Positions 14,922 to 31,636 of a DNA stretch of 32,000 nucleotides are shown here, one piece after another. Below the pieces are notes generated by a model. That model was not told where the DNA came from. It saw only the letters and a list, made by a program, of their open reading frames with translations, and searched no databases. The DNA is from an uncultured archaeon. Lineage in GTDB: Archaea; Asgardarchaeota; Thorarchaeia; Thorarchaeales; Thorarchaeaceae. The stretch's first letter is position 1. The number at the start of each line of letters is the position of its first letter. The stretch covers positions 210,001-242,000 of the forward strand of contig CAZYLT010000003.1 in assembly GCA_964648855.1 (NCBI GenBank). Reading direction: 5' to 3'. The position numbers were made by a program, and so were the translations under genes.

Positions 14922-16046
14922 ATGTCTAAGGGAAGAGCTGGCGATGTTTCTATAGGGGAAAGTGATGAAGCAGATCAAACGAGACGAAGAAAAATCGAAC
15001 ATATTGAGATTTGTCTACAGGAGAATGTACAGGCTGGAACGTCTGCGCTCTTCGAAGACATTTCATTTATTCATAATGCTCTACCGGAAATCGATAGAGG
15101 GGATATCGACCTAACAACCAATTTCATGGGCCTGCGAGCCAATGCGCCCATAGTTATCGCAGGAATGACCGGTGGTCATCCAGATACCCTTGATATCAAT
15201 AGGCGCTTGGCTGAAGCTGCGGAAGAGCTTGGAATACCAATAGGTGTCGGGAGTCAAAGAGCAGCAATAGAAGATCCTCAATTAGAGAAAACGTTTCGGG
15301 TGGTAAGGGAGTATGCTCCTACTGTACCCATTTTAGCCAATATTGGTGCGACTCATGCAAACGCTGCAATAGATGCAATTGAAATGGTCAACGCTGACAT
15401 AGTAGCGATTCATCTGAATCCGCTTCAAGAGGCAATCCAACCAGAAGGGGATTGCGATTCAACCGGAGTGATTGAGAGAATCTCTAAGATTGTTGATGCT
15501 GTAGAAATTCCAGTCATCGTCAAGGAAACAGGAGCCGGCATATCAAGGCATGTAGCCGAGATCCTCGAGTCCATAGGTGTGACTGGTGTGGATGTTGGCG
15601 GCCTTGGTGGCACATCTTGGGCTGCGGTTGAGTATTATCGGGCTAAACATGAGAAGAACGATGCAAACGCTCAGCTCGGTATTGAATTTTGGAATTGGGG
15701 TATTCCCACTGCTCTTAGTATAATAATGGTCAATAAGACGTCGAATCTGGAGATAATTGCAACAGGTGGAATCAGATCGGGAATTGATATTGCAAAATCA
15801 TTGGCCGTTGGTGCGTCTTCCGCAGGAATTGCTCTACCTCTCTTAGAACCTGCCGTGAACGGACAGACCGAGGACATCATTGCAGAGTTGCAACTGTTCA
15901 TGGATGGACTAAAGACTACGATGTACCTAACTGGTTGCAGAACTGTGGAAGAACTGAGATCATGTCCGCTAATAATAACAGGAAAACTTAGAGAGGCTCT
16001 AGAATCAATCAATATCGATGGGAATCTATTTGCATCTAGACCCTAG
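14922..16046 (+). CDS. fni: Type 2 isopentenyl-diphosphate delta-isomerase (FMN-dependent)
   Basis: RKIEHI, HNALPE, GMTGG, GVGSQR, HLNPLQEAIQPEGD, VKETGAG, GGTSW, WGIPT and GGIRSG. Confidence 0.97.
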   Translation: MSKGRAGDVSIGESDEADQTRRRKIEHIEICLQENVQAGTSALFEDISFIHNALPEIDRGDIDLTTNFMGLRANAPIVIAGMTGGHPDTLDINRRLAEAAEELGIPIGVGSQRAAIEDPQLEKTFRVVREYAPTVPILANIGATHANAAIDAIEMVNADIVAIHLNPLQEAIQPEGDCDSTGVIERISKIVDAVEIPVIVKETGAGISRHVAEILESIGVTGVDVGGLGGTSWAAVEYYRAKHEKNDANAQLGIEFWNWGIPTALSIIMVNKTSNLEIIATGGIRSGIDIAKSLAVGASSAGIALPLLEPAVNGQTEDIIAELQLFMDGLKTTMYLTGCRTVEELRSCPLIITGKLREALESINIDGNLFASRP

Positions 16047-16124
16047 CGTCTGAGTAAATGAGTACCGATAATAGGATATTAGTCCGTCCCTCGCAATTTC
16101 GTATCTTATTTATTCTATTTCTTA

Positions 16125-17534
16125 TCAGGTAATTTTTTCAATGCGTTGAAGAAACTCCGATCTTTTCCGGATGCCATTCAGCATTTGAACCGCTTCTTCG
16201 ATGGTATCGCCAACTGGTATGCCATTTAGTTCAAAGCCTCTGATTATGACTTCGTACTTCTCAAGATAGGGTACGTACGAAACGACTGTTTTCTGATACC
16301 TCTTGGCGACATTCGCCACTCGAGCTCCAATCTGCAATGATATTCCCGGAGCATAAGGTAGCAATAGTAGGAGGGCTGAATCAACATCATCAAATTTCAG
16401 CATCACATCAAGGACACGTTCATAGTCAATATCCGATGCGCTACCCGTTAAGTCACAGGGGTTTCGGAATGAAGAGATGTCCCGATACGAAGGAGTCATG
16501 ACTTCTTTCATGGCTTCCTGCTGGGATTCATCAAATTGTGGAAAATCCAATCCGTAATGAGCTCCCTCATCGACAGCAATGACTCCATGGCCGCCAGAAA
16601 CTGTCAGACAGCCAACCCTCGGACCCTGCATCTCCTGCAGTTTGAATGAGAATGCCTTAGAGTACGCCATGACCTCGTCTTCATCAATCGCTTCGAGAAT
16701 TCCGTACTGTTTGAAGGCGGCAGACGTGATCTCTGCACTACCGGCTAATGATGAAGTGTGACTTTGTGTTGCACGATGCCCTGCCTCAGATTTTCCTCCC
16801 TTCAGTACTACCACAGGTTTCCTTGTTGTGACTGAAGAAGCAGCTTCAACAAAGTTCCTCCCCTCCCCTTCTGGAAATCCTTCTATATATGCAACAATGA
16901 CGCTGATATCATCTCTATTGCCAAAATATTCTACAAAATCGTCTACTCTGGTTTGCGCGGCGTTACCGATAGATATCGCAGCTGCAATTCCAAGATTTCG
17001 AGCTGCGTATTCTTCTAGCCTCTCTACCAGCCAGCCTCCGCTCTGTGAGATTATTGCAACGTTTCCCTCTCGAGGTCGAGCTACACGCTCAGATGGGAGA
17101 AAGAAAGTATCAATGACTCTTGGCACAAAGACCCCAATACAGTTGGGGCCAATCATAGTCATTTCATTTGTATCTGCAATTTCAACGATTTCATTTTGCA
17201 GGCTCTCTCCTGATTCACCTGTTTCGCTAAAGCCGCCAGAGACAACTATCACTGCTTTGATTCCACGCTCAGCACACTCCTTTAGAACTCCAGGTACATA
17301 TTTGGCTGGCACTGAGATTACAACAAGATCAATGCCTTCTGGTGCTTCAGAAATAGACTTGTAGACTTTTTGGCCTTCAACAACTCCTCCCTTCGGATTA
17401 ATCGGAAATGCTTCGAGTTGATTTTCGAAGCGCAGTTTCCGGAATATTACGTTACCAGGGGAGAACGGATTAGTTGTCGATACTCCGACTACAGCGGCGA
17501 CTTTTGGATTTAACATAACATCTAAGGTGGACAT
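16125..17534 (-). CDS. Acetate/acyl-CoA ligase (ADP-forming) alpha subunit
   Basis: CoA-binding fold (AVVGVS, PINPK, SGGFSE, GPNCIG), ISQSG, SIGN, the phospho-His motif SHTSSLAG, SGGHG and NPCDLTG. Confidence 0.9.
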   Translation of the reverse strand: MSTLDVMLNPKVAAVVGVSTTNPFSPGNVIFRKLRFENQLEAFPINPKGGVVEGQKVYKSISEAPEGIDLVVISVPAKYVPGVLKECAERGIKAVIVVSGGFSETGESGESLQNEIVEIADTNEMTMIGPNCIGVFVPRVIDTFFLPSERVARPREGNVAIISQSGGWLVERLEEYAARNLGIAAAISIGNAAQTRVDDFVEYFGNRDDISVIVAYIEGFPEGEGRNFVEAASSVTTRKPVVVLKGGKSEAGHRATQSHTSSLAGSAEITSAAFKQYGILEAIDEDEVMAYSKAFSFKLQEMQGPRVGCLTVSGGHGVIAVDEGAHYGLDFPQFDESQQEAMKEVMTPSYRDISSFRNPCDLTGSASDIDYERVLDVMLKFDDVDSALLLLLPYAPGISLQIGARVANVAKRYQKTVVSYVPYLEKYEVIIRGFELNGIPVGDTIEEAVQMLNGIRKRSEFLQRIEKIT

Positions 17535-17697: not shown

Positions 17698-18000
17698 TTG
17701 CCATGGGAAAAACATACTAAAAAGTTAGAGGAGATTCAGAAGGCCAATCTGCAGCTCGACAAAGAGATGGGCGAGCGGTTCGATGAATTGGTTAACGAGT
17801 TAGGTGGAACCGACAAAGGTGTCCAATTGGAATTTCTGAAGGAATATTTGAATTTGAGTCCAGAAGATGAAGACGCTCTGAAAGAGCTTTCTTACATGAT
17901 AAAGTCAGTAGAGGACTATCTCATTAAGGTAGTAGTAGACAAGGGGGAGAATGAAGAGTACGTATATTTCCCGAAAAAAGAAGCTGAAAAAGAAGAATAA
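17698..18000 (+). CDS. Small acidic hypothetical protein (100 aa)
   Basis: TTG start with AGGTG RBS and a TTATAT box ~40 nt upstream. Composition is protein-like and the ORF fills the intergenic gap. Confidence 0.75.
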   Translation: MPWEKHTKKLEEIQKANLQLDKEMGERFDELVNELGGTDKGVQLEFLKEYLNLSPEDEDALKELSYMIKSVEDYLIKVVVDKGENEEYVYFPKKEAEKEE

Positions 18001-18010
18001 CAAAAAGCCT

Positions 18011-19072
18011 CTATGGTTTCATCTGAGCAAGTATTTCGCGCAATCTAGGCTCTGCAAGAATAGCGTGTTGCAACTTGCAGAGCATTTTTGTTATTTCTGC
18101 ATAAATTACCTGCCTATAGGCATCAGTAACTGATTCTGCGCTATCGAGTGACTCCTCACAGCGCTGATGGATTCTTTTAATCAAGCGTTTCTCAAGTTCT
18201 GGTCCACCCCAACCGAAACCATCTAGGGCTGAATGTGCCTCAGATACTTTGTCTTTGACATTTGGCTCCTTGTTGCTGAGGATGCCCTCAAGCCCATGAA
18301 AGTACCTTGCAACAGCTCGTTCTATTCGTTCCATTTCTGTCGCATTCAATATGTTCTCTTGCGACCTTTGCTTGGACAAATCCTGTAGTAGTCGTGCTCC
18401 TGGTGCCTCTGTTAATAGCCCCCGAACGATTCTTGCGATTATTTTACTCGGAGTTTCTAAGGCATCACCAATGTATGGTGATTCAGACCGATATTTGTGG
18501 AGCTGCCTCATTACCTCTAGCCAAAATGTTGGCAATAAGACATGACATCTTTTCGAATACTGCCTTATCAATCGCTCAGTTTGCCCAATTAGACCAAACT
18601 CATCATCTTCCACTTCTACTCTTCGATAAGGCTCAGGGGGCGCCGCTTGTTCTGATTCAATGAGTGAAACTTGTTGTCCTTCTCCATCATCCTGCACCAT
18701 CTTCACTGCTAGTTTTGACGAATCATCGAGAAGCGACAGTATTTCCTGTGCGGGAGTTTCTGCAGCTTCCATCTGCTTTGCCTTCTCTGAGAGCCGAGGG
18801 AGCAGATTCTCGATTTGAGACAGCCTTTTGACAATTAGAGCCATAATATTGGATGTTGAGGAAGGAACACCCTGCATTTTAGTAGCTTCTTCCATCCATG
18901 ACCTCGTCTTGATGAGACCCTGTGTGAGAGAATCAACTCTATCGGGGTCAAAGTGTCCTTCTACTTGCGAACTTATGAGGAAATGCACTAATGTAGAGTT
19001 TAGCGTGACAATCAGCAACAGCCTATCAATTAAATCCTCTAGCTGATATGTCTCGCCCACGTGTCTACACAC
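18011..19072 (-). CDS. Hypothetical all-alpha protein, third gene of the tubulin-like operon
   Basis: 353-aa ORF that overlaps or abuts the tubulin-like stop (alternative GTG start at 19060). Two helical regions are joined by a Pro/Glu-rich linker. Confidence 0.85.
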   Translation of the reverse strand: MCRHVGETYQLEDLIDRLLLIVTLNSTLVHFLISSQVEGHFDPDRVDSLTQGLIKTRSWMEEATKMQGVPSSTSNIMALIVKRLSQIENLLPRLSEKAKQMEAAETPAQEILSLLDDSSKLAVKMVQDDGEGQQVSLIESEQAAPPEPYRRVEVEDDEFGLIGQTERLIRQYSKRCHVLLPTFWLEVMRQLHKYRSESPYIGDALETPSKIIARIVRGLLTEAPGARLLQDLSKQRSQENILNATEMERIERAVARYFHGLEGILSNKEPNVKDKVSEAHSALDGFGWGGPELEKRLIKRIHQRCEESLDSAESVTDAYRQVIYAEITKMLCKLQHAILAEPRLREILAQMKP

Positions 19073-20465
19073 CCTGCTCGAGATTATCTCCAGAACCTGG
19101 CGTCATGTAGTAACTGAAAAGTTCTCGGAAGTCAGCTATCGCATTCACCAGTTCCTTTCTTGTTGTTCCCTTCGATCTCTGGAACCAACTCTGTTTCAGA
19201 GGTGATGCGCCACTATGGAGATTCACTAACTGGGTGGCTTCATTGATTATCTGTACCAGCTCAGGAATCTTGGGCAAGCCAAGAAGCAAGAGCAGATTTG
19301 TCTTAGGATTCTCATCATGGTACTGGACGTAACATGGTGTTATTGCCGCTCCTGGAGCAATGAACTTATCCAGAGCTTCTTTCAGGTGCATTCCGTATTC
19401 TGCTTTGCTAATATGTCTGGAACCACTCAGAACATAGTAGACGCTCTCAGCATTTGGTTCATCACCAACATCCGCGTAAGAGGTTTCCTTCACAGCATAG
19501 TCTATCATAGCCTTCAACTGGTTTCGCATACTTCCCGCATCAGGGATGAGACCTATGTCTGTATACAGGGCAGGAACTACCACAGGATCGAGTTTCCTAG
19601 AATAATCCGCAAGATCTGTGGTGGGAAAGACATCTTTGTTTGGCTCATAGACTCCCGGTGAGAGCATTGCTTCAATCACATCAACTGCAAGGGGGTTAAC
19701 GAGTTCAACAAAGGCTTGTTCAGTTCTTTCTTCTATGGCACTCGATTCATCAAGGGTTGAGGGAACCATTGTTTCGATAGAATCAATGTTTGCGATATCT
19801 ACATCGAGCTCTCGTTGAAGATAGTCCACGCTGTCCGTTCTTCTCGACTGAAGTATCCTCTTCAGCATAGTGCGGTTGCTCAGTAGAATAGTTAGGTCTG
19901 CACCACGTTCCTGAAGCTGAGCCCGAAGCAGCTTACTAACGGCCCAGATTGAGTTGAGCGCCTCACTTGATTGTCCCTCGAATGGAAGTACTCCAATTAC
20001 GTAAACAAAAATTCGTCGCCCTTCCTCTTCCTGAAATCTCTGCTTCAAGGCCTCAATAAGTGCTGGGGTTCCTCCGCAACCTGTACCTCCACCAAGACTT
20101 GTGAATATCGAAAATCCTGAAACTCCTTCAAAACCCAAATTTCCCAATTGGTCGAAAATGATGTCTTTGGACTCCTGGACTGCATTGTAGCCCTCCATGA
20201 ACCTTCCACCAACACCTATTTCGCTGGCACCATAGAGCAGTGTATGCTCTTTTGGTACGCCATATTTGGAGCGAACTTTGGTCAGGTCCGCCCTGTCAGT
20301 GTTCATCAAGAGATAGCCTCTCACTCTAGAAGGTAACTTTTTATCCCGACTGGTCTTCAGATATGAACCGACAATATTGGACCCGCATTCTCCAATCCCT
20401 ATGGCAAAGACCTCTGCGGCTTTCGTGGCTTCCTCATCAAGCCTAATTGCGCTGTTTGATACCAT
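19065..20465 (-). CDS. Divergent tubulin/FtsZ-superfamily GTPase with tubulin-like C-terminal helices
   Basis: T1 GIGECGSNI, T2 MNTD, T3 GVGG, T4 SLGGGTGCG, T5 VLPF, T6 LLSN, T7 TTDLADYSRKLDP, and C-terminal WFQRSKGTTRKELVNAIADFRELFSYY. AGGAG RBS. Confidence 0.93.
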   Translation of the reverse strand: MVSNSAIRLDEEATKAAEVFAIGIGECGSNIVGSYLKTSRDKKLPSRVRGYLLMNTDRADLTKVRSKYGVPKEHTLLYGASEIGVGGRFMEGYNAVQESKDIIFDQLGNLGFEGVSGFSIFTSLGGGTGCGGTPALIEALKQRFQEEEGRRIFVYVIGVLPFEGQSSEALNSIWAVSKLLRAQLQERGADLTILLSNRTMLKRILQSRRTDSVDYLQRELDVDIANIDSIETMVPSTLDESSAIEERTEQAFVELVNPLAVDVIEAMLSPGVYEPNKDVFPTTDLADYSRKLDPVVVPALYTDIGLIPDAGSMRNQLKAMIDYAVKETSYADVGDEPNAESVYYVLSGSRHISKAEYGMHLKEALDKFIAPGAAITPCYVQYHDENPKTNLLLLLGLPKIPELVQIINEATQLVNLHSGASPLKQSWFQRSKGTTRKELVNAIADFRELFSYYMTPGSGDNLEQGV

Positions 20466-20483
20466 CAGCTAATTCTCCTTTTC

Positions 20484-23171
20484 CTATCCTCTTTTATCCA
20501 TCATAGTCTGAACAATCTCTTCCAGTGCCCAAGTCAAATATGTGCTTATGTCCTCTCGACTATAGGTTTCTTTGATTTTTCTCTTTGCATCTTCCATGAA
20601 CTTCGCTCTCTCGTCAGCACTTGCTGCTGCGCTGAAGCCGCTCATAAACATTCGAAGCGTCTTATGCCAGCCATCCATCTTTTCTGCTTTATCGATCCAG
20701 TTTTCCTTCATTTTCTCTAAATCATTGTAGTACTCAAGAGCTTTGTCTAGTCGCTCTTCTTCGGATAGACTTTCTTCGATTGACAGCATCTTTGTCATGG
20801 GAAAGATGTGCTTGCTAAACTCCTTAGGATGTTTTTCATATACTCGCACAATTGTTGAGTAGTACTTGCTCTTCTGTTCAATCCTCTTCTCATATTCTTC
20901 TTTGTCTTTCTTTGCGATGTCCTTGATGACACCCAACATTTCATCTTGGATGTTGGCTAGGGTCAAGCAGACTTCGAGAGCTTCTGTTACATATTTTGAT
21001 TCCTGTTCTAATGTTTCTGGGACTTTCTCCAATAACGCTTTAAGACGCTTCACAAAATCCGGCATTCCTTGTTCTTCAAAGATTGATACTGCATCTTTGA
21101 TTTGTCTATGAGCTTCATTTGCTCTTTCAATAATCTTCGCCTGAATAGCCTCCGATGTGGTTAAGGCTGATAATTTGTCGAAGGCATCAGCGGCATCCTC
21201 CAACTCACTCGGAGTATTTTCTTGTAGATTGTAGAGAATTGCTAATTCCTCTTCCAAATCAACGCCAACCAATGAGGCGCGCTCAAAGGATTTGGTTAGT
21301 TTATCAATCTCTTCATTCAGTTTCTCGATTACCTTACCAGTTATCTTCTTTTCATATATCTCAACCATTTTTCGAGCTTTTGCAGGGAGGCTGAATACTG
21401 TGTCTGCCACCACGCCAATGTTATTGAGTTCGCTAATAGCCTCTTGGACCTCTGGAGGCATCTCAACTCCTGCTCCCATAAGTTTAGCAGCAGCGAGCCT
21501 GATTTTTACTCCTAGTCTATATCTGAGGTTTTCAAGGGCATCTTTGGCATCTGCAAGGATTGAGTCCTTTATGGTCCGCATTTCACTGCGGATTGCTGAA
21601 AATTCGTCTAGCTTCTCAATGCCGACTTTTCCTTCATCTAATTCGACTATTAAAGGCATGAAGATTTCAGCGTAAGCGGGTTTAATGGTCTGCAGGTCTT
21701 GAATAATCGCATCGATTTCCTGTTCGCATGCCTCTCTGAATGTAGCAACGCCACTTTCAACTGTATTTCTGAGGTTCACGAGTGATTGATGTAGATAGAT
21801 AACGCCTCCTTCGAGGTCCTCGACCTTCGGAGCCTTTTTGGAAAGCTGTGCATAATCTAATACTCTGTCAGCAGAGGTAGCGAGTTCATTGAACCTCGTC
21901 ATATACTCCCTAATTTCTTCGATTAGATTTTTCCTGTAGATTTCCTGCCGTTTTGAAGCATTGACATATATAGATATCATGTCATCGATTTCAGCATTCT
22001 GAAGCTCTGCTTTTGAATCCGCAACAAATTGCCTGACTGATACTATGTCATCTATTCCAGTGTCCTCTGGAAAATCAGTGGCCTTTTCAACTTCATCAAG
22101 CGTTTCCTCAACCTTATTTTTGAGTGCAATCCTGACTTGTGATTCCCACTCAACCATTTTCTGATATGATGACAACAATGAGGGGACATCTTGGTCTTCC
22201 GCAGACACTGCTGGAGGTTGAGGTATCAAGTCAGAGCTTGTGGGGATTCCTCCCTCCACAATACTGGAAGTCACTTCGTGTTTACTATTGATTATTCTAT
22301 CCTGCAAAATGTTAGCCATTTGAAGCCGCAAAGAGTGTAATTGGCTCTCCAAACTCATTAAAGAGGTCAGATTCTCCGCCTGAGAAGCGTCCCGAGCTAA
22401 TACTCTAATCTTCTGAGAGAAATCCATTGGAAGATCGAGTCCAAGTTTGGTTGCTGTATCAACCGATGCTTGAAGTGAATCGATATCGCTCATTAGAGAT
22501 GCGCTCAACATCCTACTGACTTCGTCTTTTCTTCCATCTAGATACACTCTTTCGTTGTGAAGCTTCTCCATGAGAACCATCAAATCGGCAATAGCAAGAC
22601 CGACGAGATTTTCAGTTGAGATTGTTGTAGAAACCTCTCCCCTATCGATAGTGACATGTCTCTCATAAGTTTCAACTATGCGCTTGTTTTCATCCAATAG
22701 GTCCTTGGCTTCACTTGCTAACTCTTTATGCAACGTCTTGTACAAATCGGAGATATTTTTCGTGAAGTCATATAGACTCTTGAAATCCTTTAGGTCTCCT
22801 GCTCCAATGGATGGCATACTCATAGCCAATAGCTTTTTCGTTTCAGCTGGTTTGTATGATTGTAGCCGCTCTCTCGTCGATAAGGTTCTGCGATGCTCCT
22901 TTCTCAGTAATTCGCCAAAGTCTCTAACGATTCGCATGAATTCCTCGTCTAGATTCTTTTCAGCATCTTCGACTTGTGAACTCACTTTTCGTCGTTTGAT
23001 AAATCCTGCATCCTTGAGTTCTTTTTCCAGTCTAGAGAGCTCTGCAAATATATCATACAGTCCTCTTACCTGTCTGCTGGTCTGTTCCTCAAGAGCAGGA
23101 TTTAGAATGACCAGCATGCTTTTCATTTCAGAGAGGCGGTCAAGCTCTCTTCTCCATTTGTTGCTATCCAA
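20484..23171 (-). CDS. Large helical-repeat / coiled-coil rod protein (895 aa), first gene of the tubulin-like operon
   Basis: Long E/K/L-rich amphipathic helices throughout, with no Walker motifs and no TM segment. TTG start with AGGAGG RBS; 18-nt gap to the tubulin-like gene. Confidence 0.88.
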   Translation of the reverse strand: MDSNKWRRELDRLSEMKSMLVILNPALEEQTSRQVRGLYDIFAELSRLEKELKDAGFIKRRKVSSQVEDAEKNLDEEFMRIVRDFGELLRKEHRRTLSTRERLQSYKPAETKKLLAMSMPSIGAGDLKDFKSLYDFTKNISDLYKTLHKELASEAKDLLDENKRIVETYERHVTIDRGEVSTTISTENLVGLAIADLMVLMEKLHNERVYLDGRKDEVSRMLSASLMSDIDSLQASVDTATKLGLDLPMDFSQKIRVLARDASQAENLTSLMSLESQLHSLRLQMANILQDRIINSKHEVTSSIVEGGIPTSSDLIPQPPAVSAEDQDVPSLLSSYQKMVEWESQVRIALKNKVEETLDEVEKATDFPEDTGIDDIVSVRQFVADSKAELQNAEIDDMISIYVNASKRQEIYRKNLIEEIREYMTRFNELATSADRVLDYAQLSKKAPKVEDLEGGVIYLHQSLVNLRNTVESGVATFREACEQEIDAIIQDLQTIKPAYAEIFMPLIVELDEGKVGIEKLDEFSAIRSEMRTIKDSILADAKDALENLRYRLGVKIRLAAAKLMGAGVEMPPEVQEAISELNNIGVVADTVFSLPAKARKMVEIYEKKITGKVIEKLNEEIDKLTKSFERASLVGVDLEEELAILYNLQENTPSELEDAADAFDKLSALTTSEAIQAKIIERANEAHRQIKDAVSIFEEQGMPDFVKRLKALLEKVPETLEQESKYVTEALEVCLTLANIQDEMLGVIKDIAKKDKEEYEKRIEQKSKYYSTIVRVYEKHPKEFSKHIFPMTKMLSIEESLSEEERLDKALEYYNDLEKMKENWIDKAEKMDGWHKTLRMFMSGFSAAASADERAKFMEDAKRKIKETYSREDISTYLTWALEEIVQTMMDKRG

Positions 23172-23177
23172 GGACGT

Positions 23178-23184
23178 TCCTCCT
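23178..23184 (-). promoter_or_regulatory. Shine-Dalgarno (AAGGAGG) for the 895-aa gene
   Basis: Minus strand reads TAAGGAGGAACGTCC-TTG. Confidence 0.7.
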
Positions 23185-23240
23185 TATTTTTGGACAAACA
23201 ACTCTTGTTTGTCTTCATTGGTTTTAAGTCTGTTCTGCCT

Positions 23241-23249
23241 CTATATAAT
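23241..23249 (-). promoter_or_regulatory. Putative TATA box of the tubulin-like operon
   Basis: Minus strand TTATATAG ~70 nt upstream of the start, preceded by a purine-rich BRE-like stretch. Confidence 0.45.
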
Positions 23250-23399
23250 CCCTTGCTGTTTCGATGAAGTTAAGTGGCGAAAACATGCCGCATCAAAAGG
23301 GAAGGTGAATTTTGCCTATCACAGTAACTTTAAACAGGCTTTTCCATTTCTCCTATAGAGAAAAAGGTCCCTTACAATTCAAAATATGGTGGAAATAAC

Positions 23400-25310
23400 A
23401 TGTCAGGTGCTCAACCAACAAATGGTGAAGAGCTACAGCTGACTTTCGAGCAAGTAGCTTCACTGGATGTGGATGTTACATACTTGAATCAAGATGAAGA
23501 ATACTTGTACGGTGCATGCTCTGATTTGAAAATTCGTGCCTGGACAAAGAAAAACTGGGAAGAAGAAGTAGTATTAGGAGAGACGAACTCAAAGCCATTG
23601 GCTGTCCATGTTGATGATGAGCAGGTCTATGCCACTTGTGAGAACCGAGTATATGTTTGGAAAAAGATTGGGTGGGGAATGACCGGCTGGTTCGAACTCG
23701 CTTATGATGCCGTTACTTCCGCATTAAGAGGCGATTATCTATATGTTGGAGCGAAAGAGGGTCGCTTAGTTTCGATTAGGAAGGATAGTCATGAAACATC
23801 TAGTTGGCAGCTCTACAAATCAGATATATCCAGTCTCTGGGCTGACAAGAATCTCGTTTGCATCTCCACTGCCAAGGACGATGCACGTGTATACGAAATG
23901 AAAGAAGGTGACGCACCAGTCCAACTCGCAACTTTAGAACTAAAGGATAAGGGCCCAGTCTTAACCGGCAATGATGAATTTGTCTTTTCAGCGGTCAAGA
24001 CTGGTTCCATCAAGATATGGGCCCGCGTTGATTGGAGCGAGGTTGACACGCTGGAAGGAAAGAATGATAATGCAATAATCTCGATGTGGGCCAACAGCCT
24101 CTTCTTAGTGACTGCATCTGACTCTTCATTCATTTCTATTTGGGACCTTCAGAGCATGTCACGACTAGGACGAATTAAGGTAGAAGATGCTCGGGTTCGG
24201 AGAGTACTTGTTGACAAAGATCTACTGATTATCGCTACTGACCAAGGCATTAGTGTGATTCGACTTATGATCGGTGAAACTTCCTTTGATTTGTCTTCTA
24301 TTGAAAACAGCAGACTGGGGGCCAACATTCTCAAGACATCTCCTTATGATGTCCTCGAAGATGCAATCGAGCTACAGAAGCAAGCAGACGTACATATTGA
24401 GGAGAAAGAGTATCATGAAGCGGTTACGGACTATGAAAATGCGTTGCAGTTGCTAATCGACAACACTCATTCTCTGCTTGAGGTGCCAGATGAACGGGAG
24501 CGGATGACTAACGACCTAAACGAACGATTGGGCAAGGCATTACTCAAGGCAAAGATTGTGGAGTTAGAAGGCCTAAATGAAGAAGTTTCAGATGTTTTAA
24601 GGGAATTAGACGAAAATGGACGTCTAGAGCGAGATAATGAAGAGATACAGAAATTATGGAACAAAGTAGGAAGGGCTGTCAAAGAGGGTAGGGTTCTATC
24701 AGATGCACAGGAGGGACATATTCTAAGCTATCAGCTGACATATACTGCAGACGAACTAGAATCTGCTATGAAGTCCGCAAAATCAAAACTGGAGGCTTAT
24801 CGAGAGAAAGTGGGAGAAATTCGCTCGCTAATCGAAGGAATCGATAATGAGTGGAGATGGATAGAACGACGCAGAACCAAATTATCAGATAGATTGGAAT
24901 TCCTGAACAAGCAGATAGGAATAGTTGAGACCGAAAGAGAAAAGATAGAGGATGAGGAGGAAATCGAGTCTCTTCTGACAACAGCAATTATGAAGTATGA
25001 AGAAATCAAGGATCAGATTTCGAGAATCATTGAATCATCTCAAGCCAGTCAAGTAGATGTCTTGAGCAGTGAAGAGGAGGCAAGAGATGCCATAGCTGGA
25101 ATACTCGGTCTTGTTCCAAAGAAGAAAAAATCCATTGAAGAAATGACAGATGATGATGGGCGGCAAAAAGCAGTTTTACGATTGAAAGATGCGATTCGAG
25201 AAGCCAAATCAATTGCAGAGGAATTCGAAATGAAAGATGAGCTGGAACATATCAATGAAATTGATGAACAAATCGATTTGCTTTCGAAAGAACAGAAACC
25301 TGAAGACTAG
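23400..25310 (+). CDS. WD40 beta-propeller + MIT/TPR-like three-helix domain + coiled-coil protein
   Basis: About 290 aa of ~40-aa WD repeats (SDLKIRAW, RVYVWK, GSIKIWA, TASDSSFISIWDL), then DVLEDAIELQKQAD...EYHEAVTDYENALQLL, then a long E/K-rich helical tail. Confidence 0.85.
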   Translation: MSGAQPTNGEELQLTFEQVASLDVDVTYLNQDEEYLYGACSDLKIRAWTKKNWEEEVVLGETNSKPLAVHVDDEQVYATCENRVYVWKKIGWGMTGWFELAYDAVTSALRGDYLYVGAKEGRLVSIRKDSHETSSWQLYKSDISSLWADKNLVCISTAKDDARVYEMKEGDAPVQLATLELKDKGPVLTGNDEFVFSAVKTGSIKIWARVDWSEVDTLEGKNDNAIISMWANSLFLVTASDSSFISIWDLQSMSRLGRIKVEDARVRRVLVDKDLLIIATDQGISVIRLMIGETSFDLSSIENSRLGANILKTSPYDVLEDAIELQKQADVHIEEKEYHEAVTDYENALQLLIDNTHSLLEVPDERERMTNDLNERLGKALLKAKIVELEGLNEEVSDVLRELDENGRLERDNEEIQKLWNKVGRAVKEGRVLSDAQEGHILSYQLTYTADELESAMKSAKSKLEAYREKVGEIRSLIEGIDNEWRWIERRRTKLSDRLEFLNKQIGIVETEREKIEDEEEIESLLTTAIMKYEEIKDQISRIIESSQASQVDVLSSEEEARDAIAGILGLVPKKKKSIEEMTDDDGRQKAVLRLKDAIREAKSIAEEFEMKDELEHINEIDEQIDLLSKEQKPED

Positions 25311-25355: not shown

Positions 25356-25985
25356 TTATCCTGCGGAAGCAATCAAGCTCTCTAGTGATAGGTTACTAAT
25401 TGTTTCACTCTTTGCAAAATCAATCCATTCATCTGCATATTGTTCCAAGCTTGGATTCAAGGAAAAGGCGTACTCTGCAGCAACTATAGCTGCTTGATTT
25501 TCTCCCACAACGAACTTGCACGCCGCATAATTGTACCAGATGATTCCAGAATTGGGATTCAGGTGTAAGGCTTTCTCCAATGCAGAAGCTGCACGGGTCC
25601 AATCCTCTCCTCTCATATATGCCATTGCCAACAGATGCCATCCGCTCGCATTTCTCGGATGCAATTTAAGGCTATTTTCGAGAGCTGCTATACCCTCATC
25701 TAGTTCGCTCAGCAACAAATGGAGAAATCCCTTATCTGCCCATACCTGGCTCTGATTTGGCTCAATGCATAGCATTCGGTCTAGAGCCATGATGGCTTGC
25801 TTTGGCTTTTTCAATTCAATATTGCAGGCAATGACTTGTTCCCATAAACCCGTATTGCAGGGATCACGGTCAATAGCTCTCTCAAGAGTTGCTATGGCTT
25901 CATCGTATTCTGAATTCTTCATTAGCAATGAGGCATGATTGAGAATAGAGCTGACGTCATCATTTGCTTTACTTCCGCAATCCAT
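25356..25985 (-). CDS. Tetratricopeptide repeat protein (~5 TPRs)
   Basis: 34-aa repeats ending AIDRDP, LCIEP, LKLHP, LHLNP and FSLNP with W..A/G...A..A spacing. Start moved to ATG 25985. Confidence 0.9.
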   Translation of the reverse strand: MDCGSKANDDVSSILNHASLLMKNSEYDEAIATLERAIDRDPCNTGLWEQVIACNIELKKPKQAIMALDRMLCIEPNQSQVWADKGFLHLLLSELDEGIAALENSLKLHPRNASGWHLLAMAYMRGEDWTRAASALEKALHLNPNSGIIWYNYAACKFVVGENQAAIVAAEYAFSLNPSLEQYADEWIDFAKSETISNLSLESLIASAG

Positions 25986-26127
25986 TGAGAATTTCCCTTC
26001 CGATCTGAATTCTATTCGAATCAAGACCTTAAGAACCGCCCCAAAATCTGAGCACAAAAGTCTTGCCTTGGTTGCAATACTGAACGGCTTGAGGTGGAAG
26101 CACCATTAGTTTCTCCCTTCTCCGATT

Positions 26128-27582
26128 TCATTCCCAGCCAGTCATTTCTATTTTTGCAATATTTCCCAAATTCCTATCCCCGTGTTCGGATACCAATCTG
26201 ATTGGCCAATCCGGTTCACCAAGTAATTCTCCATTAGTCCAGACCGCCAGCACAAGACTGTCATTATATGCAATCTCATATGCATTGAATGATACAGAGT
26301 TATCTAGAGAATCGTAGAGGGTGACTGTGTAGTTCTTCGTGACGAGACTGGAATTGAACTGGAAATGTTCATCATCAGCTCCATCCATTGCAGAAACAAT
26401 GGTCCAGAGAGCAAGCCCCTCATACTCTGTTCCGTTGTTTGTAACCGTTTTTCTATGATGAGTACACGATGCGGCCGAATAGAATACATCATGTGTCATA
26501 TTGAATGACTCAACTCCTGACAGCTGTAGCTGCCACGATTCGACTTGGTTGAGAACAGTGATGTTCACGACGTCTTTGATCCAGTAATGTCCGTCAGTGA
26601 AATAGCCGCCGTCATTGAAGAATACCATGCGTATTGGTCCTCCATTTGTTAGAGGCTCATCGTCTTCATAATATGCTAGAATGGCGGTGAAATTACGCTG
26701 ACCAACTATATCACCAGTTGTTGAATCATATGCCCGAAGCTCACCCAGCGCCTCTGTGCTGTTGAAGTATCCAGTATATCCATCTGAGGCAACTACTTCA
26801 AGACCGTATTCTGGTGGTAGATATTCTGTTTGGTTCAGGAGATATTCTAATTCAACACCTGTATACGTGAAAGGACCTTCTATTGTTCCAGTCGATTTGA
26901 CATAACCGGCATCGGCAGTTATTGAAGGCATCCCAAGAATCTCATCCATTGTAAATTCCAGGGTTTCTGATTCTGTTTGTACCGCTATCGCAGAAGGTGC
27001 AATATTGTTGACTTTGATGGTTTCTACGCTAGCGACGCACTGTGGTCCAGCTGCACCGCCAAAGAGGTTTTCTGAGGTTGTTGCTTCAGCATCTGAGCTA
27101 TCATAATAGCCATCTTCAGGAACGAATATGACTCTGTAACCATCTTCCCACTCGGGGACAACCGTTCCGTTGTATTCGAAGGCCAAAATCATATCTCCTT
27201 GGAGGTCAAGGATTTCGCCGCTAGGATACACTTTTTGATAACCATAGGTCACCTCATATCCATCGGTAGCATTCACGGTAATCCGGTCTTCTTCGTTCAT
27301 TCCGCCAACTAATTCAATTAGGTCAGAGATTCTAACTCCTGAATAAGTTCCTTGCCCACGCACATTTCCAAAAGAATTCTGAAATGAGGTATATCCACTA
27401 ACAATATCCATTGCTTGCATCTCTGAAAGGTAAACATCCTGTTCTGTTGCATCTGCACCAATCACGGTGATGGATGGCCCAGCGTCGTGGGGTTGCATTA
27501 GGTAGATGGCAGCCAATGCAGATCCTGCCACCACAATTACAATTACCAAGATACCATGCAGCTTCGTTTTTGAACCGTTCAT
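26128..27582 (-). CDS. N-terminally membrane-anchored surface protein with three sulfite-oxidase/molybdopterin-oxidoreductase-like domains
   Basis: TM segment ILVIVIVVAGSALAAIYL. Three repeats carry YSGV/YTGV/YEGL, ATDGY/ASDGY, ILA and YRV/PIRMV/PIRLV. Many N-x-S/T sequons. Start moved to ATG 27582. Confidence 0.75.
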   Translation of the reverse strand: MNGSKTKLHGILVIVIVVAGSALAAIYLMQPHDAGPSITVIGADATEQDVYLSEMQAMDIVSGYTSFQNSFGNVRGQGTYSGVRISDLIELVGGMNEEDRITVNATDGYEVTYGYQKVYPSGEILDLQGDMILAFEYNGTVVPEWEDGYRVIFVPEDGYYDSSDAEATTSENLFGGAAGPQCVASVETIKVNNIAPSAIAVQTESETLEFTMDEILGMPSITADAGYVKSTGTIEGPFTYTGVELEYLLNQTEYLPPEYGLEVVASDGYTGYFNSTEALGELRAYDSTTGDIVGQRNFTAILAYYEDDEPLTNGGPIRMVFFNDGGYFTDGHYWIKDVVNITVLNQVESWQLQLSGVESFNMTHDVFYSAASCTHHRKTVTNNGTEYEGLALWTIVSAMDGADDEHFQFNSSLVTKNYTVTLYDSLDNSVSFNAYEIAYNDSLVLAVWTNGELLGEPDWPIRLVSEHGDRNLGNIAKIEMTGWE

Positions 27583-27699
27583 ATCTCTCACATGTCTTCC
27601 TATTTTTCCCGACGTTATGCATCGCGGAGCATATCGAAGACAGATAAATATCTTACCGTATGTTGGTGAAACAATCAATTCAGGACAATCTGCTTAAAA

Positions 27700-27976
27700 A
27701 TGGCTAAGGAAAAACCTATTGGGTTATCTATGGACGATATCTACGATTCTATCGAAAACTAGGATGTTGCAGAAACTATTCTTCAGGACCGTAGTCCCCA
27801 GAAGACTTACTTCTTCTCAATTGGAGTGCTGATTGATGGGACGGACCAAGCGTCCAATAGGGTTGGTGCAGCCATGCCTGCAGATACTACTTGGACAATG
27901 GGTTGCCGGTGCAGCTGGCGCGGTCGTGATTATCCTCATAGTATTGGTCCTCTTCCGGAGAAGACCGAGTAAATGA
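27700..27976 (+). pseudogene. Remnant of a fibronectin type III-like surface protein with C-terminal TM anchor
   Basis: The frame from ATG 27700 reads ...IYDSIEN*DVAETILQDRSPQKTYFFSIGVLIDGTDQASNRVGAAMPADTTWTM, with TAG at 27760. Removing one G at 27900-27902 continues it as VAGAAGAVVIILIVLVLFRRRPSK* (TGA 27974-27976). Confidence 0.6.
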
Positions 27977-27993
27977 CGCAGAAGAGGGATTGT

Positions 27994-28380
27994 TCATTTC
28001 ATAGCAATGGCTTGAATCTCTATACTAACATCCTTTGGCAGTCGTGCCACCTCAACTGCGGCACGCGCAGGCGGATTCTGGCTGAACCATTTGGCATATT
28101 CCTCGTTCATTACTTGAAACTCATCCATATTATTCAGAAAGACTGTTACTTTCACCACTTTCGATAAAGATGAACCAGCCGCTTCCAAAACCGCTTTCAA
28201 GTTGCTCAGACATTGTTTTGTCTGCTCAGTTATGGATCTATCAACTAATTCACCCGTGTCAGGATTCACAGGAATTTGCCCTGAACAGAAAACCAAGTTT
28301 GCTGTCGCGATTCCTTGTGAGTACGGTCCAATAGCCTTTGGAGCTTTTGATGTCGATATTACTTCTCGAACCATTTTCAT
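27994..28380 (-). CDS. ridA: RidA family reactive intermediate/imine deaminase
   Basis: [44 protein letters not shown] and IEI. Confidence 0.96.
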
Positions 28381-28464
28381 CGGGCAGAGTCCGAAGCCAT
28401 GATGTAATTAATCTATCTGATTATTCGCGATTCCCTTTTTTCTTAAATGAAGTGAATTCTGAGA

Positions 28465-29439
28465 TCAGCGTCTCTCTGGTGGAGGCGGTATGTAGTTTCC
28501 TCTCAAAATCCGTGTCCCTGTTTCACCACGTAGTGCCTTGGTGATATTCGGGGGATCAGTTATTATTGCCATTTCTCCTCCCCGCTCAATGAATGAAATA
28601 CACGCCTCTACTTTTGGAAGCATGCTGCCAGCTGCAAAGTGTCCTTCCTCCATGTATTTCTGAGCTTGAATGTGGTCCATCTTGTCAATGGGCTCTTGTT
28701 CATCAGTGCCGAAGTTCAAGTACACCTTTTCAACGGCTGTGGAGATGAGCAGAACATTAGCATCCAAGCCGTTTGCAAGCAATGCAGAGGCTCGGTCCTT
28801 GTCAATCACAGCAGCAACACCTTCGAGGTTGCCCTGGTCATCTTTTATGACGGGAATGCCGCCACCTCCGACCGCGTAGACAATAACTCCATCTTTTATG
28901 AGTGCTTTAATCGCTGGTAATTCTATAATTCTCTTTGGAATTGGTGATGCCACAACTCTTCTCCAACCTCTTCCAGCGTCTTCTATCACTTGCCACCCCT
29001 CCTCCTTCTCTCGCTTCTTGGCTTCTTTTTCATCCATGAATGATCCAACAGGTTTTGCGGGGTTCTCAAATGCTGGGTCTTTCTTGTCAACAAGGGTTTG
29101 GGTGACAACGGTTGCGACTGATTTGTTCATGTTGCGCTGATTGAATTCGTTGTACATGGCTCTTTGAATCATATATCCGATTGCGCCTTGGGTATCAGCC
29201 CCGCAGTAGTCAAGTGGAACCTCATGAAGCTCATGAGATGCCAATTCGGACCTTCTTAGAATGAATCCCACTTGTGGGCCATTTCCTGATGTAATAACAA
29301 CATTCCATCCCTGTTCAATCATATCAGCAATATGCTTGCAGGTTTCTGCAGCTGCTTCATATTGGTCAGGCACCGTACGATGATTCTTATCCTTGATTAG
29401 CGAATTTCCGCCTATTGCGACTACTGCTTTCTGAGCCAT
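28465..29439 (-). CDS. arcC: Carbamate kinase
   Basis: VVAIGGNSL, GNGPQVG, TQGAIGY, DPAFENPAKPVG, RGWRRVVASP, GGGGIPV, AVIDKD and GSMLPKV. AGGAG RBS. Confidence 0.96.
   Translation of the reverse strand: MAQKAVVAIGGNSLIKDKNHRTVPDQYEAAAETCKHIADMIEQGWNVVITSGNGPQVGFILRRSELASHELHEVPLDYCGADTQGAIGYMIQRAMYNEFNQRNMNKSVATVVTQTLVDKKDPAFENPAKPVGSFMDEKEAKKREKEEGWQVIEDAGRGWRRVVASPIPKRIIELPAIKALIKDGVIVYAVGGGGIPVIKDDQGNLEGVAAVIDKDRASALLANGLDANVLLISTAVEKVYLNFGTDEQEPIDKMDHIQAQKYMEEGHFAAGSMLPKVEACISFIERGGEMAIITDPPNITKALRGETGTRILRGNYIPPPPERR

Positions 29440-29575: not shown

Positions 29576-31636
<2,061 letters not shown>

Follow-up and report, generated by a model that had tools for sequence, protein, structure and literature searches.

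What is a tubulin-like GTPase (guanosine triphosphatase) doing between the genes of two helical proteins, in an archaeal genome that encodes two canonical FtsZs elsewhere? The question is raised by a locus within a 32,000-nt stretch of DNA (hereafter, the window; positions 210,001-242,000 of the forward strand of contig CAZYLT010000003.1, assembly GCA_964648855.1) from a member of Thorarchaeaceae whose closest named relatives are Thorarchaeota. Three genes follow one another on the minus strand of the window: a gene for an 895-aa rod protein (20484-23171, TTG start), a gene for a 466-aa GTPase (19065-20465, ATG start), and a gene for a smaller helical protein (18011-19060, probably 349 aa). 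We estimate a probability of roughly 55% that these genes form an operon of three, passed on vertically, whose products make up a dedicated cytoskeletal module distinct from FtsZ-based division. The co-occurrence of the three genes, their order, tight spacing and co-inheritance, the intact GTP-binding and T7 motifs, and the strong constraint on the sequences all support this reading.

The middle gene was taken for a tubulin-superfamily GTPase in the initial annotation, and its match to PF00091 (72.3 bits against a curated cut-off of 33), its GGGTG signature and its T7 aspartates bear this out. The protein fails the FtsZ model TIGR00065 (30 vs 295 bits) and is below the cut-off of PF13809 (Tubulin_2; FtsZl1/FtsZl2) with 17 vs 27 bits, the best family member reaching E=7e-5. 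Neither PF03953 (Tubulin_C) nor any other C-terminal Pfam family was matched in 59 GTPase family members. The motifs are GIGECG (T1), GVGGRF (T3), GGGTGCG (T4) and TTDLADY (T7), and an insert of ∼40 aa precedes helix H7. Across 59 orthologues, the T1 glycines, E26, the NT of T2, the T3 glycines, GGGTGCG (G125-G131), N197, F252, N257, and the T7 aspartates D284 and D287 are invariant; in a motif alignment the G-rich T4, N197, F252, N257, D284 and D287 align with positions of FtsZ and OdinTubulin, T7 aligning with the NxDxxD of FtsZ. In the PDB, CetZ proteins match best, and they do so over the GTPase domain alone (4b46; profile E 1e-13). Judged by sequence, the window GTPase is a member of the Asg.Tub clade, which was named in 2023 with four members (Santana-Molina, del Saz-Navarro and Devos; PMC9871819). 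The supplement of that paper lists KXH77455.1, OLS30664.1, OLS26264.1 and PWI48967.1, and the sources of the four members are Thorarchaeales SMTZ1-83 and AB-25 and Heimdallarchaeia LC-3 and B3-JM-08. The window GTPase is 87% identical to the AB_25 gene (locus L065); at the N-terminus and in T7 its motifs agree with the printed ones of the first, third and fourth of these accessions, and OLS30664.1 shares the motifs too. The whole family has only two full-length representatives at 50% identity. In five genomes, the identity of the GTPase is 89/81/71/61/56%, as compared with 82/77/-/61/-% for FtsZ1 and 86/80/66/-/48% for FtsZ2. The GTPase is thus conserved to at least the level of the two FtsZs from these genomes, in keeping with a protein that makes contact through many surfaces. 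In one relative (L084:8001-9475), the GTPase match lies in two pieces ∼110 nt apart, which is indicative of an insertion, a frameshift or an assembly error.

The trio is common but unevenly distributed among Asgard archaea. Among 400 Asgard genomes, 129 carry the rod gene, 126 the GTPase gene and 123 the helical gene (∼31%); each is present in 32 of 90 high-quality genomes, and the same nine families carry all three. By cluster names, the carriers are Thorarchaeia, Hermodarchaeia, Baldrarchaeia, Asgardarchaeia, Borrarchaeum and Hodarchaeales; they include the lineage thought to be closest to eukaryotes, and nearly all Hodarchaeales of the two carrier families possess the trio. None of the three genes was found in the remaining families searched in the 400-genome set, one of which comprises 135 genomes, and profile searches gave no orthologue in five genomes of non-carrier families (three of them single-contig). 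The named full-length GTPase matches are from Asgard archaea, except two members labelled Bathyarchaeota and Thermofilum, which fall inside the Baldrarchaeia cluster and are probably mis-binned.

The gene order rod-GTPase-helical is kept across the carriers. The rod gene lies within 150 nt of the GTPase gene in 114/117 locus records (median gap 12 nt) and the helical gene in 108/113 (median gap 14 nt), counts in which some contigs occur twice and kin are not independent. Across classes, the partners share 17-28% identity and the GTPase 43-61%; the trio stays together while the flanking genes differ from class to class, and trees of the rod, the GTPase and the helical protein agree in their class-level clades. 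In several Hodarchaeales there is a second rod-Asg.Tub pair that has no helical gene (L105:5650-12680, L107:5560-12601, L146-L151), ∼50% identical to the pair in the window. As this pair persists without the third gene, the rod and the GTPase appear to be the core pair. In L105 and L107, the second pair is followed by a convergent gene for a 740-aa Rag-type GTPase (PF04670); in several Hodarchaeales (e.g., L104:1796-4991), a Cdc48-type AAA gene is found two genes upstream of the rod as a lineage-specific neighbour. Four divergent relatives of the GTPase (P0004, P0013, P0015 and P0016) gave no rod or helical match in the DNA available, which for L119 has no flanks. The closest of them, P0004 (L118:8001-10149), shares GGGTGCG and a similar T7 and has no rod upstream; the next gene codes for 262 aa and matches the helical protein only faintly (hhalign 12%), and smc and scpA are found in the vicinity.

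The layout in the window itself agrees with an operon. The coordinates, the tight coupling and the ribosome-binding sites of the first two genes were all confirmed: 18 nt separate the rod stop from the GTPase ATG, and Shine-Dalgarno sequences precede the rod gene (GGAGG, 23183-23179, minus strand; kept in relatives) and the GTPase gene (AGGAG, 20479-20475, minus strand). The helical gene is where the initial annotation had placed it, but its length of 353 aa, from a GTG at 19072 overlapping the GTPase gene by 8 nt, is less probable than 349 aa from the GTG at 19060 (4-nt gap), because the N-termini of homologues begin at the latter. Upstream of the rod, a probable archaeal promoter of the operon is located at 23222-23237 (minus strand), with BRE-like (B recognition element) CAGAA at 23237-23233 and TATA-like TTAAAA at 23227-23222. 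Among 45 Thorarchaeaceae regions upstream of the rod, the CAGAA...TTAA block is one of few that are conserved, and we consider it the putative operon promoter. A sigma-70 promoter scan, which is unsuited to archaea, gave hits at chance level. Against the nearest relative, the ratio of nonsynonymous to synonymous substitution (dN/dS) is 0.010 for the GTPase, 0.038 for the rod, 0.036 for the helical protein and 0.074 for the neighbouring WD40 gene (dS 1.1-1.3); purifying selection thus acts on all four, and therefore all four are real genes. An antisense open reading frame (ORF; 22678-23358) overlapping the rod gene and the promoter was dismissed as a shadow frame.

The two partners were then characterized by structure prediction and profile comparison. 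The acidic rod is all-helical in the AlphaFold2 model (predicted local distance difference test, pLDDT, 86; predicted template modelling score 0.41), with an N-terminal bundle (∼1-145) followed by tandem three-helix units of ∼115-125 aa, and with the highest conservation in the C-terminal domain (residues ∼750-895), where W835, H836, Y878 and L879 are invariant. Two of the units, 213-328 and 329-456, are related by hhalign (probability 80%, E 1.4e-5), which upholds the description of this protein as a repeat rod. The rods of Hodarchaeales (1140-1310 aa) contain extra copies of the unit, about two more, so that the repeat number varies by lineage. The Baldrarchaeia loci (L100-L102, L144) have N-terminally extended rods (∼1025 aa) and N-terminally shorter helical partners (293-306 aa). 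In its AlphaFold2 model (pLDDT 88), the helical protein consists of an N-terminal three-helix bundle, a disordered linker and a conserved C-terminal helical domain that is modelled with confidence. Net charges are -16, -41 and -10, all three proteins being acidic. Rod and helical protein show no homology to each other, no significant Pfam match in profile searches and no PDB profile match. Foldseek searches of PDB in two VIA modes gave no fold match above background for either, an Atlas fold search with the helical protein gave nothing above background, and an Atlas feature search with the rod returned its own cluster only; these fold searches barely covered the helical C-terminal domain and single rod repeats. 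Against the rod model, the EzrA cytoplasmic domain reached Z 7.5 (209 aligned, root mean square deviation 22.8), PRC1 Z 5.8 and gamma-tubulin ring complex chains Z 5.2-6.6. As these values are at background level for helical bundles, such likenesses are analogies. A three-chain complex prediction (helical 4-349, rod 700-895, GTPase 12-457) scored 0.54, and 0.59 with the helical protein replaced and 0.00 with the GTPase replaced; it was not used as evidence.

From these observations, we propose that Asg.Tub would form a GTP-driven filament, which the rod, through its C-terminal domain, would hold, space or bundle and which the small protein would tune. It is highly probable that the trio is transcribed as a unit and that its products work together. 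GTP binding and head-to-tail polymerisation by Asg.Tub are likely, with D284 and D287 completing the active site of the neighbouring subunit as in FtsZ and CetZ. With somewhat better than even odds, the rod holds the GTPase via its conserved C-terminal domain while the variable number of repeats sets a length, and in this way it would space, bundle or tether filaments; this role could be likened to that of EzrA or PRC1, homology to which is not shown. The small helical protein may be an adaptor or an assembly regulator. By analogy with CetZ, the module most likely serves the shape or the internal organisation of the cell.

Several points weigh against this proposal. We infer filament formation and partner binding from sequence, and no bench study of any member of the trio was found in the literature searched. 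The GTPase has Glu in T1 (Gln in tubulin/CetZ), Cys in T4, Thr in T7 (Asn in FtsZ), and the ∼40-aa insert; the changes in T1, T4 and T7 or the insert before H7 could alter or even block polymerisation. No transmembrane segment was predicted in the rod, the GTPase or the helical protein, and the anchoring role suggested initially is hence without direct support. Three loci (L132, L133, L152) are interrupted: in two Hodarchaeales, 9.8 or 4.3 kb lie between the rod and the GTPase, and in a Thorarchaeote 8.2 kb lie between the GTPase and the helical gene; because of these few interruptions of 4-10 kb, strict co-transcription is not universal.

The same oddities could be read differently. Asg.Tub could be a subunit of a fixed complex, one that is held on the rod and serves as a template or GTP switch, comparable to gamma-tubulin on GCP rods. 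The single copy, the extreme constraint, the altered T1/T4/T7 residues and the insert would all suit such a subunit, as would a rod that is GCP-sized, all-helical and conserved at its C-terminus. The GCP_C_terminal profile (PF04130) is touched by 1/38 rods, at E=0.003, which is below any cut-off, and the ring complex scores are within noise. Moreover, both catalytic aspartates are invariant, fitting polymer-coupled hydrolysis, and most carriers have no known true tubulin to nucleate, true tubulins being present in ∼1% of Asgard genomes (PMC13394414). We therefore regard a fixed complex as unlikely, although it is the best placed of the alternatives.

Slightly less probable still is a service to cell division, in which the module would be an FtsZ accessory, or would replace one FtsZ, with an EzrA-like rod. 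The FtsZ-type T7 spacing and the presence of the EzrA cytoplasmic domain among the rod fold matches are in line with it, as are three carriers from other families (G025, G135, G102; G102 being a single contig rated 96% complete) that gave a single FtsZ match each with either FtsZ query. However, FtsZ1 and FtsZ2 are both encoded in three Thorarchaeaceae genomes, that of the window included; the EzrA score does not rise above background, and no division gene was recognised in the flanks examined, which are not common to the classes.

The initial annotation had further included the divergent neighbour of the rod in a four-gene system, whose WD40 protein would regulate the filament module. This gene (23400-25310, plus strand, 636 aa) lies head-to-head with the rod across the 228-nt gap that had been described, and encodes a propeller, supported over 25 orthologues, and a helical tail. 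The propeller was upheld and the MIT-like part was not: the MIT match (PF04212) is not significant (E=0.09, 13 vs 30 bits) and covers about half of the profile (positions 1-36 of 66), and MIT is not among the 25 commonest families across the 25 orthologues. The proposed synteny likewise holds for the trio over nine Asgard families but fails for the WD40 gene, found only in Thorarchaeaceae. The head-to-head arrangement is kept in 40/47 Thorarchaeaceae loci having room (the gene is missing from the locus in 5/47), and the gene is under purifying selection. The C-terminal half of the protein was nevertheless found in Thorarchaeaceae only (64/85; 0 in the other eight carrier families), and profile searches found no orthologue in the near-complete G012 (98%) and G392 (99%), both of which carry the trio, nor in any of eight distant genomes. 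Since an unrelated TPR gene (46/47) and an acyl-CoA ligase gene (51/56) are linked as tightly, the WD40 linkage is ordinary family-level synteny. Regulation by the WD40 protein thus appears improbable; the gene is a family-level neighbour and no core member, which may have a lineage-specific accessory role. Least probable of all is that the module segregates DNA like TubZRC or PhuZ with the small protein as DNA adaptor. In favour of it, TubZ systems have a similar operon layout of GTPase plus partners, and an SMC/ScpA pair is found close to a divergent relative (L118). Against it, the locus is on the chromosome and has been inherited vertically, no DNA-binding domain was detected in either partner, and all three proteins are acidic.

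Other genes of the window were also recorded. A 100-aa ORF (17698-18000, plus strand) converges on the end of the operon; it is conserved in a few relatives (L029, L033, L039, L084) and is hence probably a real small gene. The neighbours at 14922-17534 and 25356-29439 encode an FMN-dependent (flavin mononucleotide) enzyme resembling type 2 isopentenyl diphosphate isomerase, an acyl-CoA ligase-like protein, a TPR protein, an amino-acid-kinase-family protein and a protein with a molybdopterin-oxidoreductase domain, the last in some relatives only. A bacterial-type DNA ligase dependent on nicotinamide adenine dinucleotide is encoded at 29588-31636 (plus strand) in this archaeon, and its relatives have it too.

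The claim of an undescribed system stands in part, as the GTPase already had a name while both partners belong to no known family. In the literature searched, in which subscription journals are poorly covered, a single paper uses the name Asg.Tub, and neither the three-gene operon nor the two partner families were found described. What is already known is therefore the clade name and a coiled-coil context, and what appears to be new is the conserved operon with its two partner families. At ∼31% of the Asgard genomes searched, the operon is much more widespread there than true tubulin (∼1%). Two partner families without a known fold name the proteins to co-express, and as all three proteins are soluble by prediction they should be accessible to polymerisation, binding and cryo-EM work. 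Cultures of Hodarchaeales have been reported (PMC12583498), in which localisation of the proteins may be possible, provided that the operon is present. If the filament reading is true, this would be a new partner-dependent filament system in the cell biology of eukaryote ancestry. It is a long shot that the Asg.Tub filament would have an outer surface like that of tubulin and that the rod is a true homologue of the eukaryotic tubulin-binding rods (PRC1/MAP65 spectrin repeats or GCPs). If so, the operon would represent an Asgard forerunner of systems in which tubulin works with a crosslinker or a nucleator, one that Hodarchaeales possess and have duplicated.

In FtsZ-EzrA, microtubule-PRC1/MAP65, BtubAB-BtubC and gamma-tubulin-GCP, a tubulin-family protein works with an elongated helical-repeat partner. 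The present rod has no significant sequence or structural match to any of these partners; it is predicted to contain tandem three-helix units, and its Z scores against spectrin-repeat rods (EzrA, PRC1) are within the helical-bundle background. The true Asgard tubulins (OdinTubulin, AtubAB) belong to the same superfamily, and the last two helices of Odin-type tubulin resemble the two-helix C-terminal tail of the GTPase by eye only; C-terminal profile searches for H11-H12 matched no tubulin chain and no CetZ chain. Asg.Tub differs from them in weaker profile matches (E ∼1e-6 to 1e-5), the lack of Tubulin_C, and a T3 of GVGGRF as against GAHNVW (GxxNxW type) in Odin-type tubulin. From FtsZ1 and FtsZ2 it is separated by T1, which is GGAGNN in FtsZ, as well as by the missed TIGR00065 cut-off. 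CetZ (Haloferax CetZ1/2; 4b46, 4b45, 3zid) is the closest PDB sequence and is likewise an extra superfamily protein beside two FtsZs, but the likeness is restricted to the GTPase domain, T1 is GECG and not GQAG, and T7 is DxxD and not of the DxxE type. A comparable partner operon was not found in the accessible parts of the CetZ paper. The CetZ-related Asgard archaeal clade used as an outgroup in a recent preprint (bioRxiv 10.64898/2026.02.15.705738) is probably Asg.Tub. In the accessible parts of the paper that named it, Asg.Tub is described as CetZ-like with an unstable placement, with no match between the C-terminal models of Asg.Tub and CetZ, and with coiled-coil genes of unknown nature around such tubulin-like genes; those parts contain no operon, partner families or function. 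Beyond that description, our analysis adds the three-gene order over nine families, the repeats of the rod, and the Hodarchaeales paralogue.

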